A DNA stretch of 23,016 bases from a virus (IMGVR_UViG_2531839468_000018:1-23016); one strand, 5' to 3'. Positions 9,035 to 22,479 are shown, numbered from the stretch's first letter. Numbers and translations are program-made. Notes: generated from the sequence alone by a model not told the origin.

Positions 9035-9080
9035 ATTCGTAATGCGAAGGTCGTAGGTTCGACTCCTATTATCGGCACCA
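9035..9080 (+). other. 3' 46 bp of a tRNA-Thr (thrW-like, anticodon CGT) gene: anticodon loop to CCA end; att-site remnant / island boundary
   Basis: ATTCGTAATGCGAAGGTCGTAGGTTCGACTCCTATTATCGGCACCA has the T-arm GGTTCGA..TCC, acceptor stem and CCA; the 5' half of the tRNA is absent; identity to thrW is from memory. Confidence 0.7.
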
Positions 9081-9685
9081 TCAAGAAAATCAATAACTTA
9101 GCTTAACTTCTCTAAGAAATTGTATCTTCTGTTATCACTTACAAACGCCTATACGTTGTTATGGGCTTTGGTAGTTTAACACGTATGGGCGAGTAGTTCC
9201 CAGGCTCAACCTCGTAACAAGTTCCTTTGAAGCTGGAAGACGTGCCACCGTCTCTAAACCTTCTACCAAAACTCTTAGCAAGATGTTCCACACCTGGCGC
9301 GGTGTCCAATGATGCTACACGTCGTGAGACGTTGCAGAGGATAAACAGGCTAAATGATGGGAAGAGTTTTAAGTGCAATAGTGGATCAAAGCCCACCTCT
9401 TCAAAACCTAACTTGATCGGGAAAGAATCAAGCTCTAGCACGGTTTCGTCCACCGGAGTACAACGGGTGCCTGATAAGAGAAGAACTGCTAAGACTTCAT
9501 AGCTTTTGTGAAAAAGCCCTTTTTAGTGGATACGCCTACGGCGCTTATTTTTTGGTATAACCATCAAAGGCGCTTTATGGCTCCTATTGTCTTGAAAATG
9601 TATCTTTACTTGTATTGTGTTTTATGCGTAGTCTCCCTGTGTAGTATGTAACTTGTTAATTTTCATATGAATACAGAGGCACACG

Positions 9686-9844
9686 ATGAAAAACATTGCA
9701 GCTATCAAACGTAATAACCGCAAGATTCACGCTCGTAAGTTCCTGTCTACGCCAGAAGGAAAAGCCTGGCTAGAGCGTAAACAGAGAGAGAACGAAGAAA
9801 GAAAACTCCTTAGTGAGTTGAAATGGCTTAGAGAGGATTTCTGA
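9686..9844 (+). CDS. Small basic protein (52 aa), hypothetical
   Basis: ATG 9686 preceded by GAGG; MKNIAAIKRNNRKIHARKFLSTPEGKAWLERKQRENEERKLLSELKWLREDF; below the ORF-track size cut-off. Confidence 0.3.
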   Translation: MKNIAAIKRNNRKIHARKFLSTPEGKAWLERKQRENEERKLLSELKWLREDF

Positions 9845-10007
9845 AAATCTCCAGAACGCAACAGGACGCATTCTAACGCTGTTTTCATTGCTTGGTATAG
9901 GGATGTATAGGTGATGTGTGTTTAATGCGTCTGTGCGCTTGTTTTGTGCCTTATTTTGCATTTTCATAATGCAGAAGAGAACACGGAAAACCTTAAAATT
10001 AATTATT

Positions 10008-10050
10008 GGGGTATTTAAGGCTATTTTCAGGTTATTTAAGGGTATTAAAC
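10008..10050. repeat. AT-rich ~10-bp periodic direct repeats (GGTATTTAAGG-like)
   Basis: GGGTATTTAAGG CTATTTTCAGG TTATTTAAGG GTATTAAAC. Confidence 0.5.
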
Positions 10051-10123
10051 TTGATTTAATTGATTAAAATATAAACAGATAGTTCTGTATCTTATTGATT
10101 TATAAGGTTATTTTTAAATAAAG

Positions 10124-10187
10124 GTAAATAAAAATAAATAGCCATAAATAGCCATAAATAGCTATAAATACATCTAAATACCTATAT
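10124..10187. repeat. Six tandem 10-bp units (ATAAATAGCC-like)
   Basis: ..GGTAAATAAA AATAAATAGCC ATAAATAGCC ATAAATAGCT ATAAATACAT CTAAATACCT; helical-repeat periodicity. Confidence 0.6.
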
Positions 10188-20210: not shown

Positions 20211-20245
20211 TTCCCGCCATAACATTACAAGGAAAAATTATTATT

Positions 20246-20959
20246 ATGGCGACCGCCGGGATTTTAACCATACGTGCAGCAAATACTCCAGAACAACACG
20301 TTCAGGCTGTTTACAAAGCAGAACAAGATATAAACTCTACAAAAAACGAAAATAGCAAAGCTAATACAACAAAAGGCGAAAATGGATTTGCTATTGTTAC
20401 CAGTGGCTTGGCATCTTCTGGCAATGACGTTTATGAAAATTATATGGCACTGGCCTTTGATAGTGTTGACGATGTGAACGTGAGACGTTCGGCAGATGTT
20501 ACAAGCTACCCCGTAGAAAATGGTGCTACTGTGTCTGATCACGTTCAAATTAAAAACAATAAATTTTCTCTTAAAGGAAGGATCACTGAAACACCGATTA
20601 AAAGCGATCCTGGCTTGTTAAAGAGTGCAGGGGTGAACGGGAACAGAAGATCATTAGCTATCGACTACCTGAATCAGATTATGGACAGTAGACAGCCTTT
20701 TCTTCTTGTTACAGAAAATAAAACTTTTGAGAACGTTGTTTTAACAGGCATCGAATACACAGAAGAGGCAAGCGAATCCCTGGTATTTGATCTTAGCTTT
20801 GAGCAAATAAGATTAGTTTCTTATGGCACTGTAAACACTGTAGCTATCAAAACACAGCCATCTAAGAACATCGGGGCTAATATGAAAAAACGTGTTAACA
20901 CTGAAAAATCAAGTAGTGAAGGTGAAGACACTATTACTCCTGCCTTTAAACAGGAATAG
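20246..20959 (+). CDS. Hypothetical protein (237 aa)
   Basis: ATG start after AAGGA; convergent with integrase; hairpin GAGGCT..AGCCTC in the 80-bp gap. Confidence 0.55.
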   Translation: MATAGILTIRAANTPEQHVQAVYKAEQDINSTKNENSKANTTKGENGFAIVTSGLASSGNDVYENYMALAFDSVDDVNVRRSADVTSYPVENGATVSDHVQIKNNKFSLKGRITETPIKSDPGLLKSAGVNGNRRSLAIDYLNQIMDSRQPFLLVTENKTFENVVLTGIEYTEEASESLVFDLSFEQIRLVSYGTVNTVAIKTQPSKNIGANMKKRVNTEKSSSEGEDTITPAFKQE

Positions 20960-21040
20960 CCGTAAACGCCTCTAAAACGCTCTGTAACGATGTAATTATA
21001 AAAGAGGCTACCAATCTATGTTGAAGCCTCCTTATTGCGT

Positions 21041-22375
21041 CTATGGCGTTGTTTTACGCCTTAAATTTGATTTTTTATTGATTGATAAGCCTTTCTCTAT
21101 TTCAGGGTAGCGTAGAAGCTCAATATAGTTTTTAAGCTCTACTGGAGAAGCTGCATTCTTGCTATATGTGCGGAATGTCTCTGTATTGCCGCGTGTATGG
21201 CCCAGGAGAAGGGCGATCCTGTCTTCTGGAATTTGATTTCGATCAAGAAGCTGTGCTACTCCGTGTCTCAGAGAATGAAACACCTTCCTTTCTGTTCCCT
21301 TTTCCCCTAAAGCCTTTCGTTTAGCTCTTGTAAATCTCTGCGTGTGCCACGTGGAACGCTTGCCGTCTGCACGTTCTGTAATGCTGGCGTGATAGAACAA
21401 AAAGCCATTATGAGGCTTTTCACGCAGCGACAACACCAACGGAGTGATAAGGCTATGCACAGGCACAACACGCGCCGCAGCTTTCGTTTTTCCCTGTGTG
21501 ATTTCAAAACACAGCACACCTTCGATCTCTTTCACATCGTCTATTGTGAGACTTGCTATCTCATTGATCCGCATACCTGTATATAAACCGATAAGACACA
21601 AAGCTATCATTTCTTTGTTTTCTGCTGAATTACCGGAAAATACTTGCAACACCTGCAATAGCTCTTTGTTAGAAAATGCCTCATAGCTCTCTCTACTTTG
21701 TGCCACATCAAGCCTATGCCCTCGCCAGGGGGAGAGCGCCCTTTCTGGCGCATCGTGGTAACGTGATGAAGCTAACTCCCATAGCTGGGCCATTGGGCTG
21801 ATATAATTTGCAATTGATTGTTGTGAAAGGGTTTTTTGCATGTGTTCAATCCAGCCTGTAACAGTGGTGCGGCTTACATCTTGCAATGCAATATCAGGCT
21901 TTTTACGGTAGGAGAGAAACATCTCTACCGCTTTTCTTGCCTTAGCTAAAGTGGCTGGCTTCTTCTTCGTGCTGTTAATTGTCAGGTAGATTTCAAGAAT
22001 TTTAAGCAATGACGGACACGAAGACGCTGTATCTTGCATTCTGGTAGCTGTTTTGGCGTATTTAGCCTTACTGCGTAACAGTTCCAGCGTGTTCTCTATT
22101 GTGCTGTTTACAGGGGCGACACTCTCCCGTAGACAATGGTATTCATCTGCAATCTGATCACGCTTTCTACGTGCAACACGAAGACTACTTGTGTGTAGAC
22201 TTCTGACAAACGTCCTTTTTCCTTCAAAAAAGGGCTGCATATACACAGGCAGCGTGATCCTTAAATAGTAGTTACCGTAAGAATCACAGATTATGTATTG
22301 ATTAGGCTTGTATCTCATAAACTCCCCGGCTAAAGTGTCGGAGCGTTTGTAATGTGAAAATTGATTGTGACGCAT
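21041..22375 (-). CDS. int: Tyrosine site-specific recombinase (phage-type integrase)
   Basis: C-terminal ..VFHSLRHGVAQLL..LLGHTRGNTETFRTYSK.. (R-H-R-Y family) and N-terminal ..NYYLRITLP..FEGKRTFVRSLHTS.. arm-binding-like region; maximal ORF reaches 22405 (TTG); ATG candidates at 22375 and 22318 (the latter after GGGGAG). Confidence 0.8.
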   Translation of the reverse strand: MRHNQFSHYKRSDTLAGEFMRYKPNQYIICDSYGNYYLRITLPVYMQPFFEGKRTFVRSLHTSSLRVARRKRDQIADEYHCLRESVAPVNSTIENTLELLRSKAKYAKTATRMQDTASSCPSLLKILEIYLTINSTKKKPATLAKARKAVEMFLSYRKKPDIALQDVSRTTVTGWIEHMQKTLSQQSIANYISPMAQLWELASSRYHDAPERALSPWRGHRLDVAQSRESYEAFSNKELLQVLQVFSGNSAENKEMIALCLIGLYTGMRINEIASLTIDDVKEIEGVLCFEITQGKTKAAARVVPVHSLITPLVLSLREKPHNGFLFYHASITERADGKRSTWHTQRFTRAKRKALGEKGTERKVFHSLRHGVAQLLDRNQIPEDRIALLLGHTRGNTETFRTYSKNAASPVELKNYIELLRYPEIEKGLSINKKSNLRRKTTP

Positions 22376-22460
22376 AGAAAATGATGATTTTTCTATAAGA
22401 TTCAATCAATTAGTAATGGTCGTAGGTGATGGCATTAACACGAGATTAATCGAGTGTTTT

Positions 22461-22479
22461 ACTCCTATTATCGGCACCA
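22461..22479 (+). repeat. 19-bp direct repeat of the tRNA 3' end (ACTCCTATTATCGGCACCA); att core at the integrase-proximal boundary
   Basis: Identical to 9062-9080; preceded at 22418-22427 by GGTCGTAGGT, which matches the tRNA T-arm lead, with a 33-bp unrelated segment between. Confidence 0.65.

Follow-up and report, generated by a model that had tools for sequence, protein, structure and literature searches.

We analysed a stretch of viral DNA of 23,016 nucleotides (IMGVR_UViG_2531839468_000018:1-23016), referred to below as the window, and found that an element inserted in it at 9062-22480 shares a short DNA site and several structural genes with the Stephanstirmvirinae, virulent myoviruses of about 148 kb (phi92, phAPEC8; Justusliebigvirus, Phapecoctavirus). 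These results suggest that the element is probably an integrative, helper-dependent satellite of phi92- or phAPEC8-like phages. Since it has no gene for a packaging motor, a portal or a tail shaft, the element cannot be autonomous, and its combination of a capsid module under selection, a tail core with helper-compatible ends, an integrase and origin of its own and the copied genome end of a phage makes a satellite the most economical explanation. More tentatively, it may represent the first satellite family on virulent phi92/phAPEC8-type myoviruses of Escherichia coli and Klebsiella, and the first with its own capsid shell and tail core. Such a satellite would depend on the helper for portal, terminase, tube, sheath and baseplate, would be packaged by mimicry of a short-direct-terminal-repeat site, and could be retargeted to another helper clade by a swap of that site; we hold this extended proposal to be possible rather than probable. 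To our knowledge, packaging by way of short direct terminal repeats is not hijacked by any satellite, and we know of no described satellite that encodes a tape measure protein and a tube initiator. The coordinates of all features are given in Table 1.

The gene-poor left part of the element was compared with 50,697 phage genomes. Positions 10202-10247 of the window match 63 records (E = 2e-10), all of which, among the matches listed, are Stephanstirmvirinae or similar phages of about 145-150 kb. The core of the site reads TTGCGAGAGGTGCTT/AACGCGATTTTCAGCGCCCCCCGAT...AAATATC, and in the core TTGCGAGAGGTGCTTAACGCGATTTTCAGCGCCCCCCGAT 40 of 40 bases are as in phi92. The match lies at 318-363 of the phi92 record. 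The left direct terminal repeat annotated there is 343 bp long, and its inner boundary (343/344) falls inside the match as GTGCTT/AACGCG; at the right end of phi92, the repeat-internal half alone matches and runs to the physical terminus. The record of phage BME3 starts exactly at AACGCG, at the same nucleotide, and thus two independent records, the phi92 annotation and the BME3 record start, place a genome end there. The direct terminal repeats of BME3 are 342 bp long according to PhageTerm (PMC12210895). The repeats of both phages have a length of 342-343 bp, and the repeat labelled 'DTR-L' in BME3 (L055 358-699; PP239276.1 146957-147298) is shifted by about 73 bp relative to that of phi92 (L042 1-343); one annotation may be offset.

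The flanks of the match diverge with frame-breaking insertions and deletions, both among the phages and between the phages and the elements, which argues that a DNA site and not a gene has been kept. An open reading frame (ORF) of 127 aa (MARLREVLNAIFSAPR...) that starts at the site is a doubtful gene; it is called in some E. coli copies and not by RefSeq, was not found in diverged members of the family, and has no Pfam or PADLOC match. We read the 78-bp site as a putative recognition and cleavage site for the helper terminase, which would serve the element as the cos site of P2 serves P4.

A profile built from 10 such sites was run over the loci of the element family. Nearly all of these loci have the site on the same strand, at a distance of 5.4-6.3 kb upstream from the capsid gene, although the matches are weak in the most diverged members (E = 0.06-0.44 in L005, L031, L032 and L035). 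Of 49 loci, 24 contain the invariant 10-mer GTGCTTAACG, each in a single copy. Its position is syntenic in 20 loci from elements and 2 from phages, while L029 and L032 have it on the opposite strand and apart from the profile match. Certain E. coli copies carry, in place of the window-type site (variant A), a variant B, which matches a second set of 65 records (phAPEC8, ESCO13, ZCKP1, WPEC1-6) with 81% identity over 83 nt (E = 4e-13) at about 270-360 nt from the record ends. Variant B is carried by L015 (4157-4231), L026 (624-696), L027 (3935-4007), L007 and L006. Since L015 is otherwise near-identical to the window (98% for the capsid protein and 93% for the tape measure protein), the site seems to be exchanged as a module.

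Protein comparisons lead to the same phages. With the tape measure protein as the query, tblastn found 134 phage records, nearly all of them virulent Stephanstirmvirinae of about 145-150 kb. The protein aligns end to end with that of phiWec188 (E = 2e-58), with the first 42 or so and the last 40 or so residues highly similar and the middle divergent, as expected if a fit to phage partners is required of the interaction ends alone. For the tube initiator, the identity is 50% with the product of the gene directly after the tape measure gene of phiWec188 and up to 61% with its counterparts in other Phapecoctavirus-type members (range 50-61%); some records annotate these phage homologues as 'tail tube initiator'. 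The capsid protein is 22% identical to that of phiWec188 over its full length. The beginning of the tape measure gene and the gene for the tube initiator also match 120 phage records as DNA, with an identity of about 70%, and all of these records are Stephanstirmvirinae-type among the matches listed. These alignments show clear homology of the tape measure protein and tube initiator with their phage counterparts, and only a distant relationship for the capsid protein. The gene order agrees with this. The annotated module of the phi92-type phage Paula contains, in this order, portal, gp121, scaffold, decoration protein, capsid protein, terminator and, further on, sheath, tube, gp132, gp133, tape measure protein, terminator, gp135 (Dit-like) and hub. 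The late operon of the element is a condensed mirror of this module, with the 70-aa protein, decoration protein, capsid protein, terminator, 67-aa protein, tape measure protein and gp135 homologue in that order.

An initial annotation made from the sequence by a model had described the late block as a codon-optimised 342-aa protein and a 609-aa coiled-coil and hydrophobic protein. The late block is present as described, and its proteins can be recognised: profile and structure tools identify the 342-aa protein as a predicted major capsid protein and the 609-aa protein as a predicted tape measure protein, and they also place the 237-aa and 120-aa proteins. The structure search proposed in that annotation was run with Foldseek on models of the 120-aa and capsid proteins, and head-decoration and capsid folds were found. 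The AlphaFold2 model of the 120-aa protein (confidence score pLDDT 70.7) matches chains of about 123 aa in the capsid structures of Sf14 and Bas63 with a Foldseek probability of about 1.0, as well as BFVD entries named 'head decoration protein', and the protein is predicted to have the myovirus head-decoration fold. The capsid model is weak (pLDDT 54); its best fold matches are the capsids of phiTE, ICP1 (small capsids of PLE, 8g1r), Bas63 and Sf14. In contrast to these four proteins, the terminase, portal, primase-helicase and AlpA genes listed as missing by the annotation are truly not found. No ORF matched a terminase, portal, protease, scaffold, tube, sheath, baseplate or lysis protein when the 13 predicted proteins of the element were searched against Pfam and PHROG, and the largest unassigned protein (135 aa) is too short for a large terminase or a portal.

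The late genes are preceded by a control unit that the initial annotation had correctly recognised as a promoter, a leader and a terminator. The promoter (16145-16173) is near consensus, TTGACA-17-TAATAT. The leader of about 220 nt (16180-16400) has a minimum free energy of -64.7 kcal/mol (z = -6.1 compared to shuffled controls) and folds into three strong hairpins, among them a near-perfect 12-bp stem and the terminator. Diverged members of the family have a different yet conserved leader, which likewise ends in a terminator.

The borders and the replication region are those of a mobile unit. The element is bracketed by a 20-bp exact direct repeat corresponding to the 3' end of a tRNA-Thr gene, one T longer than the 19-bp repeat reported initially; when mismatches are allowed, the repeat extends to 28 nt with 89% identity. 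By our own calculation, the chance expectation for a repeated 20-mer in 23 kb is about 2e-4. The tyrosine integrase and the 12 co-directional ORFs (13834-20959) were also recovered as annotated, with the integrase at the far end and transcribed convergently with the 12-ORF operon. The previously given interval of 13.4 kb stands, but it includes an insertion sequence (IS) of 1.31 kb at 10362-11671 that is missing from the aligned copy in E. coli MB06234 and is therefore secondary and not native to the element; once it is removed, the element measures 12,090 bp from attachment site to attachment site. Its AT-rich character was confirmed (G+C content 0.387 compared to 0.50 in the flank). About a quarter of the element had been regarded as non-coding repeat DNA. 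The gene-poor left part indeed makes up 3,442 bp, or 28.5%, of the native element, yet it contains an iteron origin and the mimic of the helper genome end. In the origin-like region, the 22-bp iteron is present in 4.9 copies (12499-12606). Around it the heptamer ATTACAC accumulates, with 12 copies in the window compared to 3.0 expected, 9 of the 12 within 11976-13072 and a tenth at 10322, and it is probably a protein-binding motif; between 10322 and 13072, the copies left of the iterons are on the plus strand and most of those right of them on the minus strand. The winged-helix initiator-like protein noted in the early block is supported by Pfam (HTH_36 and DUF6945) and by PHROG, and no profile backs the ribbon-helix-helix label given to the 55-aa protein. 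As for ribosome binding, the initial description is partly right: a Shine-Dalgarno core of at least 4 nt precedes 12 of 12 ORFs, but the AAGGAG form that had been described as nearly universal occurs in only 5 of 12.

The same layout is found in Escherichia, Citrobacter, Klebsiella, Enterobacter, Kluyvera, Buttiauxella, Scandinavium and Serratia, with a capsid identity of 37-98%, and layout, site and a size of roughly 11-13 kb recur in at least eight genera of Enterobacterales. Forty-odd loci share the order 135-aa protein, protein of about 120 aa, leader, protein of about 70 aa, decoration protein, capsid protein, protein of about 65 aa, tape measure protein, optional tube initiator or cargo, and integrase. 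The capsid protein has 52 homologous clusters at E <= 1e-5, all of them chromosomal, and those with a named source belong to the Enterobacterales (E. coli, Citrobacter, Klebsiella, Enterobacter, Cronobacter, Dryocola, Sodalis and Serratia); this search of the capsid family returned chromosomal members of the element family alone and no full prophage. Purifying selection acts on the core genes: in comparisons with unsaturated dS, the ratio of nonsynonymous to synonymous substitution rates (dN/dS) is 0.08-0.32, with 0.10-0.16 for the capsid gene, 0.08-0.16 for the decoration gene, 0.21 for the tape measure gene and 0.08 for the tube initiator gene. An exhaustive HMMER search with the 135-aa protein found 30 representative clusters in 1.84 billion proteins, all short and all from this element family. 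In E. coli, six copies measure 12,032-12,967 bp between attachment sites, and 197 of 5,426 complete genomes (about 3.6%) hold at least 80% of the element.

Other parts of the family vary. The replication module is swapped among members and provides either an SF2-helicase-like protein or winged-helix initiators. Cargo genes differ as well and are placed between the tape measure gene and the integrase; examples are an EAL-domain protein of the cyclic-di-GMP phosphodiesterase type in L037 (13265-13936, minus strand) and small ORFs in L003, L005 and L034. Most members outside E. coli carry at the left end, about 100 bp from the mimic site, an additional tyrosine recombinase of 183-205 aa consisting of the catalytic domain alone (for example L003 264-845, L005 3138-3689 and L009 3747-4328, all on the minus strand), which is not present in the E. 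coli elements and could serve multimer resolution or help excision. A simple exact-match search found no attachment repeats in the members outside E. coli, and no tRNA gene adjoins most of these loci. The IMG/VR matches are prophage-type predictions from isolate genomes, without virion data. A full-text literature search found no paper on this element family, though much of the subscription literature lies outside that search, so that an earlier description is possible.

Based on these features, the following life cycle can be proposed. Infection by a Stephanstirmvirinae phage would trigger excision and replication of the element, and the late operon would be switched on by read-through of the terminator that lies behind the promoter and the structured leader. 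The capsid and decoration proteins of the satellite would then form small heads on the portal, scaffold and protease of the helper, and a genome of about 12-13 kb, approximately the size of P4, would be their cargo. The helper terminase would recognise and cut the mimic site and package the satellite DNA, and the tape measure protein and tube initiator of the satellite would be built into tails made of helper baseplate, tube and sheath. The yield of the helper would probably be lowered.

Several points weigh against this proposal. Excision, replication, packaging and transfer are all predicted from the sequence, and the one whole-element contig found in Logan (12,139 bp) is the integrated form and not a circle. 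Only one boundary of the terminal repeat is mimicked, and no convincing match to the other (left-end) boundary of the phi92 repeat was found in the element, although both ends of the satellite DNA would have to be made. In this copy, the IS lies 83 bp downstream of the mimic site and may impair it. The capsid protein is only about 22% identical to that of the helper, and its fit with the helper portal and scaffold is assumed. Co-variation of the site and tape measure variants was considered and is not supported, as L015 combines a tape measure protein of the window type with variant B, and L025 combines a 64%-identical tape measure protein with variant A. Finally, no helper-sensing regulator was identified among the proteins of the element, five core proteins having no functional match in Pfam, PHROG, PADLOC, hhalign or HMMER searches.

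The alternative that survives best, although we regard it as unlikely, is an anti-phage interference island that is not itself packaged, in which the capsid protein, tape measure protein, tube initiator and a decoy site would poison or titrate the assembly and packaging of Stephanstirmvirinae. Each of the phage-derived parts might work as a dominant-negative subunit or as a decoy for the terminase, the Tai systems are described as mobile-element genes that interfere with tail assembly (PMC11364771), and no evidence for packaging was found, as the Logan contig is integrated. However, the integrase, the element's own origin and initiator and the narrow size range of about 12-13 kb in E. coli fit a unit selected to excise, replicate and fill a capsid, and a capsid protein accompanied by its own decoration protein suggests closed shells. 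The element also has no match to known defence models in PADLOC. Furthermore, this explanation partly overlaps that of a satellite, since known satellites both interfere with their helpers and transfer.

It is quite improbable that the element is a cryptic remnant of a temperate relative of the Stephanstirmvirinae that has lost most of its genome, with the structural genes and the site as functionless leftovers. The genes follow the order of the phage structural module, of which they form a subset, the tRNA location is like that of many defective prophages, and an IS has landed in this copy. The element is not a Stephanstirmvirinae prophage as such, since it has 12.1 kb compared to about 145-150 kb with a full set of structural, replication and tRNA genes, and its homology to these phages is confined to 3-4 genes with 22-61% identity and to short stretches of DNA. 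Against decay, the same minimal gene set, order and site occur in at least eight genera with capsid identities of 37-98%, on which independent decay would not converge; the ORFs are intact, with the dN/dS values given above; and the capsid family search yielded no full prophage. In addition, the difference between the capsid protein (22% identity), whose gene is ancient in relation to the phage, and the tail proteins (50-61%) indicates a mosaic rather than a deletion derivative. An autonomous, very small tailed virus, a possibility raised in the initial annotation as a small-virus lineage, has the capsid, decoration protein, replication module and integrase in its favour but is close to excluded by gene content, as portal, terminase, maturation protease, tube, sheath, baseplate and lysis genes are lacking.

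Compared with known satellites, the element would be closest to P4 in its way of working, with its own capsid as in the capsid-forming phage-inducible chromosomal islands (cf-PICI) and with a virulent myovirus as the helper and a capsid fold lineage as in the phage-inducible chromosomal island-like elements (PLE) of Vibrio cholerae. It has the general marks of a satellite, as it lacks the genes for an autonomous virion and is linked to a helper by the 78-bp site and by the homology of its tape measure protein and tube initiator. Like the element, P4 (about 11.6-12 kb) integrates at a tRNA 3' end by a tyrosine integrase, has its own replication functions, and carries the packaging site (cos) of a helper that provides most of the virion genes. 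The integrase and the copy of a helper packaging site are thus of the P4 type, yet the copied site is a terminal-repeat boundary of the Stephanstirmvirinae and not the cos site of P2. P4 differs in that it has no capsid gene and remodels the P2 capsid by Sid and Psu, whereas the element has its own capsid, decoration protein, tape measure protein and tube initiator; the helper of P4 is temperate, whereas the helper candidates here are virulent and have short direct terminal repeats. Neither Sid nor Psu has a Pfam or PHROG match among the 13 proteins, and the decoration protein has the predicted myovirus head-decoration fold instead. P4 also encodes the alpha primase-helicase, Delta, Epsilon and AlpA. 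The same searches detected no alpha primase-helicase, Delta/Ogr, Epsilon or AlpA in the element, in which the 229-aa winged-helix initiator is the sole replication protein.

The other classes fit less well. Phage-inducible chromosomal islands (PICI) have an int-alpA-pri-rep layout with regulators and redirect packaging by TerS or Rpp/Ppi, whereas the integrase of the element lies at the opposite end and is convergent, and AlpA, primase-replicase, TerS, Rpp and Ppi gave no profile match. The cf-PICI are also islands of Enterobacterales with their own HK97-fold capsid and with other virion parts taken from a helper. However, they have a full head and packaging module (HNH, TerS, TerL, portal, protease, capsid and connectors) and steal tails alone, whereas the head side of the element consists of capsid and decoration protein alone, accompanied by two tail-core genes, without AlpA or Pri-Rep. 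PLE, which are likewise small integrated islands, share with the element a large virulent myovirus as the helper (presumed in our case), a capsid fold lineage that includes the ICP1 coat protein (8g1r) and their own initiator. They differ in having a large serine recombinase in place of a tyrosine integrase, a RepA_N initiator, the TcaP external scaffold acting on the ICP1 coat and no capsid or tape measure gene of their own; no PLE-type domain was found in the element with Pfam and PHROG, there is no sequence relationship, and the hosts here are Enterobacterales. Phage-inducible chromosomal minimalist islands (PICMI) are about 6 kb long and have int, alpA, fis, primase and terS-like genes and no structural genes, whereas the element is 12 kb long and has four structural genes and no alpA or terS. 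The Streptomyces satellites MulchMansion and MiniFlayer, compared here by description only, are likewise reported to have their own encapsidation genes and helpers described as virulent (PMC10690885); they belong to another host phylum and are reported to lack key replication genes, whereas the element has an origin and an initiator. The Tai systems on PICI and prophages are similar in that mobile-element genes act on phage tail assembly. They are described as immune systems (PMC11364771), whereas the products of the tail genes in the element are homologous to the tape measure protein and tube initiator of phages and have kept their interaction ends. The initial view that the element does not fit the P4-like, PICI or cf-PICI layouts is therefore borne out by these feature comparisons, in which the element does not fit PLE or PICMI either, and its suggestion of a new satellite lineage is supported by the missing gene classes, the absent class features and the ties to one family of lytic phages.

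Table 1. Features of the element and its borders in the window (positions counted from the first nucleotide of the window)
Feature	Position	Strand	Basis
tRNA-Thr (thrW), 3' 46 nt, fragment left by upstream island	9035-9080	+	read from sequence
Left attachment (attL) core, 20-bp exact repeat ACTCCTATTATCGGCACCAT	9062-9081	.	sequence comparison
52-aa ORF, RefSeq hypothetical WP_000788777.1 (L001 6652-6810)	9686-9844	+	no PADLOC match
10-bp tandem repeats ATAAATAGCC, 3.7 copies, just 5' of mimic site	10134-10186	.	repeat search
127-aa ORF, doubtful gene, split by IS (10199-10361 and 11672-11894)	10199-11894	+	gene finders
78-bp mimic of terminal-repeat boundary of Stephanstirmvirinae, candidate helper-terminase recognition/cleavage site	10201-10278	+	phage database search, profile
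IS629-like insertion of IS3 family, 3-bp target duplication	10362-11671	-	ALIL frameshift pseudoknot; MB06234 alignment
ATTACAC cluster around iterons, candidate regulator/initiator binding sites	11976-13072	.	motif count
Origin-like region, 22-bp iteron GGTAGGTCACTGTGAGCTAGGG followed by AT-rich stretch	12499-12680	.	repeat search
Sigma-70-like promoter of early operon, TTGACA-17-AATAAT with TG	13695-13723	+	consensus match alone
62-aa early protein, kept in many family members	13834-14022	+	ORF call, locus comparison
55-aa early protein	14042-14209	+	ORF call
229-aa winged-helix replication initiator (predicted)	14261-14950	+	Pfam HTH_36, DUF6945; PHROG replication initiation, phrog_270 6e-9
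92-aa protein	14962-15240	+	ORF call, locus comparison
135-aa core protein, orphan family	15373-15780	+	dN/dS 0.21-0.23
111-aa core protein (120 aa if start at 15755)	15782-16117	+	ORF call, locus comparison
Late control unit: promoter, leader, intrinsic terminator	16145-16400	+	promoter/terminator search, RNA folding
70-aa late protein	16459-16671	+	ORF call
120-aa head-decoration (cement) protein (predicted)	16668-17030	+	AlphaFold2 model, Foldseek
342-aa HK97-fold major capsid protein (predicted)	17049-18077	+	Pfam Phage_cap_E 4e-16; phrog_29
Intrinsic terminator behind capsid gene, as in phi92-type phage Paula	18094-18128	+	terminator search
67-aa protein in place of phage gp133, just ahead of tape measure gene	18163-18366	+	gene order
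609-aa tail tape measure protein (predicted), helper-like N- and C-termini	18381-20210	+	phrog_16051 3e-53
237-aa Dit-like tail tube initiator (predicted), homologue of phi92 gp135	20246-20959	+	Pfam Dit_like 3e-29
Tyrosine integrase	21041-22405	-	Pfam Phage_integrase (PF00589), DUF6538, SAM_5; RefSeq version 425 aa
Right attachment (attR) core, 20-bp exact repeat	22461-22480	.	sequence comparison

The early proteins of 62, 55, 92, 135 and 111/120 aa have no match in Pfam, PHROGs or PADLOC. When the small families (62, 55, 92, 135, 120/111, 70, 120 and 67 aa) were compared by hhalign with all structural proteins of phiWec188 and Paula, the probabilities did not exceed 4%. The PADLOC defence models gave weak winged-helix noise alone on the element, and Rfam at a relaxed threshold found a tRNA and no other RNA family in it.

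E. coli MB06234 carries the same element (identity about 99.9% in the aligned parts) directly behind an intact thrW, with proA on one side and a truncated LysR gene and paoD on the other, and the homologous place in locus L001 also holds an intact tRNA-Thr gene. ARAGORN called no tRNA in the window, where the left attachment copy is inside the 46-nt fragment and the gene is not intact. Since only this fragment precedes the element here and an intact thrW precedes it in MB06234, the window shows a tandem array at thrW. The second, upstream island (1-9034) ends in the displaced tRNA-Thr fragment and carries an NleG-type type III effector gene (700-1389), IS2/IS3-type transposase genes (1663-2936), an IS009 RNA (3735-3933), split pieces of an IS66 transposase gene (5728-7298) and a 321-aa ORF (7678-8643). 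The right flank (22606-23016, minus strand) belongs to a LysR-type regulator gene, which RefSeq gives as truncated in MB06234, with the N-terminus missing; the truncation beside attR indicates that the chromosome has lost sequence at the thrW hotspot.

The Stephanstirmvirinae are lytic phages with a broad host range that have repeatedly been isolated as therapy candidates. If the element is indeed their satellite, its presence in some 3.6% of the complete E. coli genomes, together with that of its relatives in Klebsiella, Enterobacter and Citrobacter, could cut the yield of therapy phages, and lytic phages considered 'safe' for therapy could become vehicles of gene transfer. The 78-bp site would give a direct handle on the terminase recognition sequence of the Stephanstirmvirinae, and the small capsid protein together with a genome of about 12 kb could provide engineered transducing particles with a compact packaging system. 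The repertoire of satellites would also be widened by a type that brings a capsid shell and a tail core without a packaging motor and copies the terminal-repeat cleavage site of its helper.

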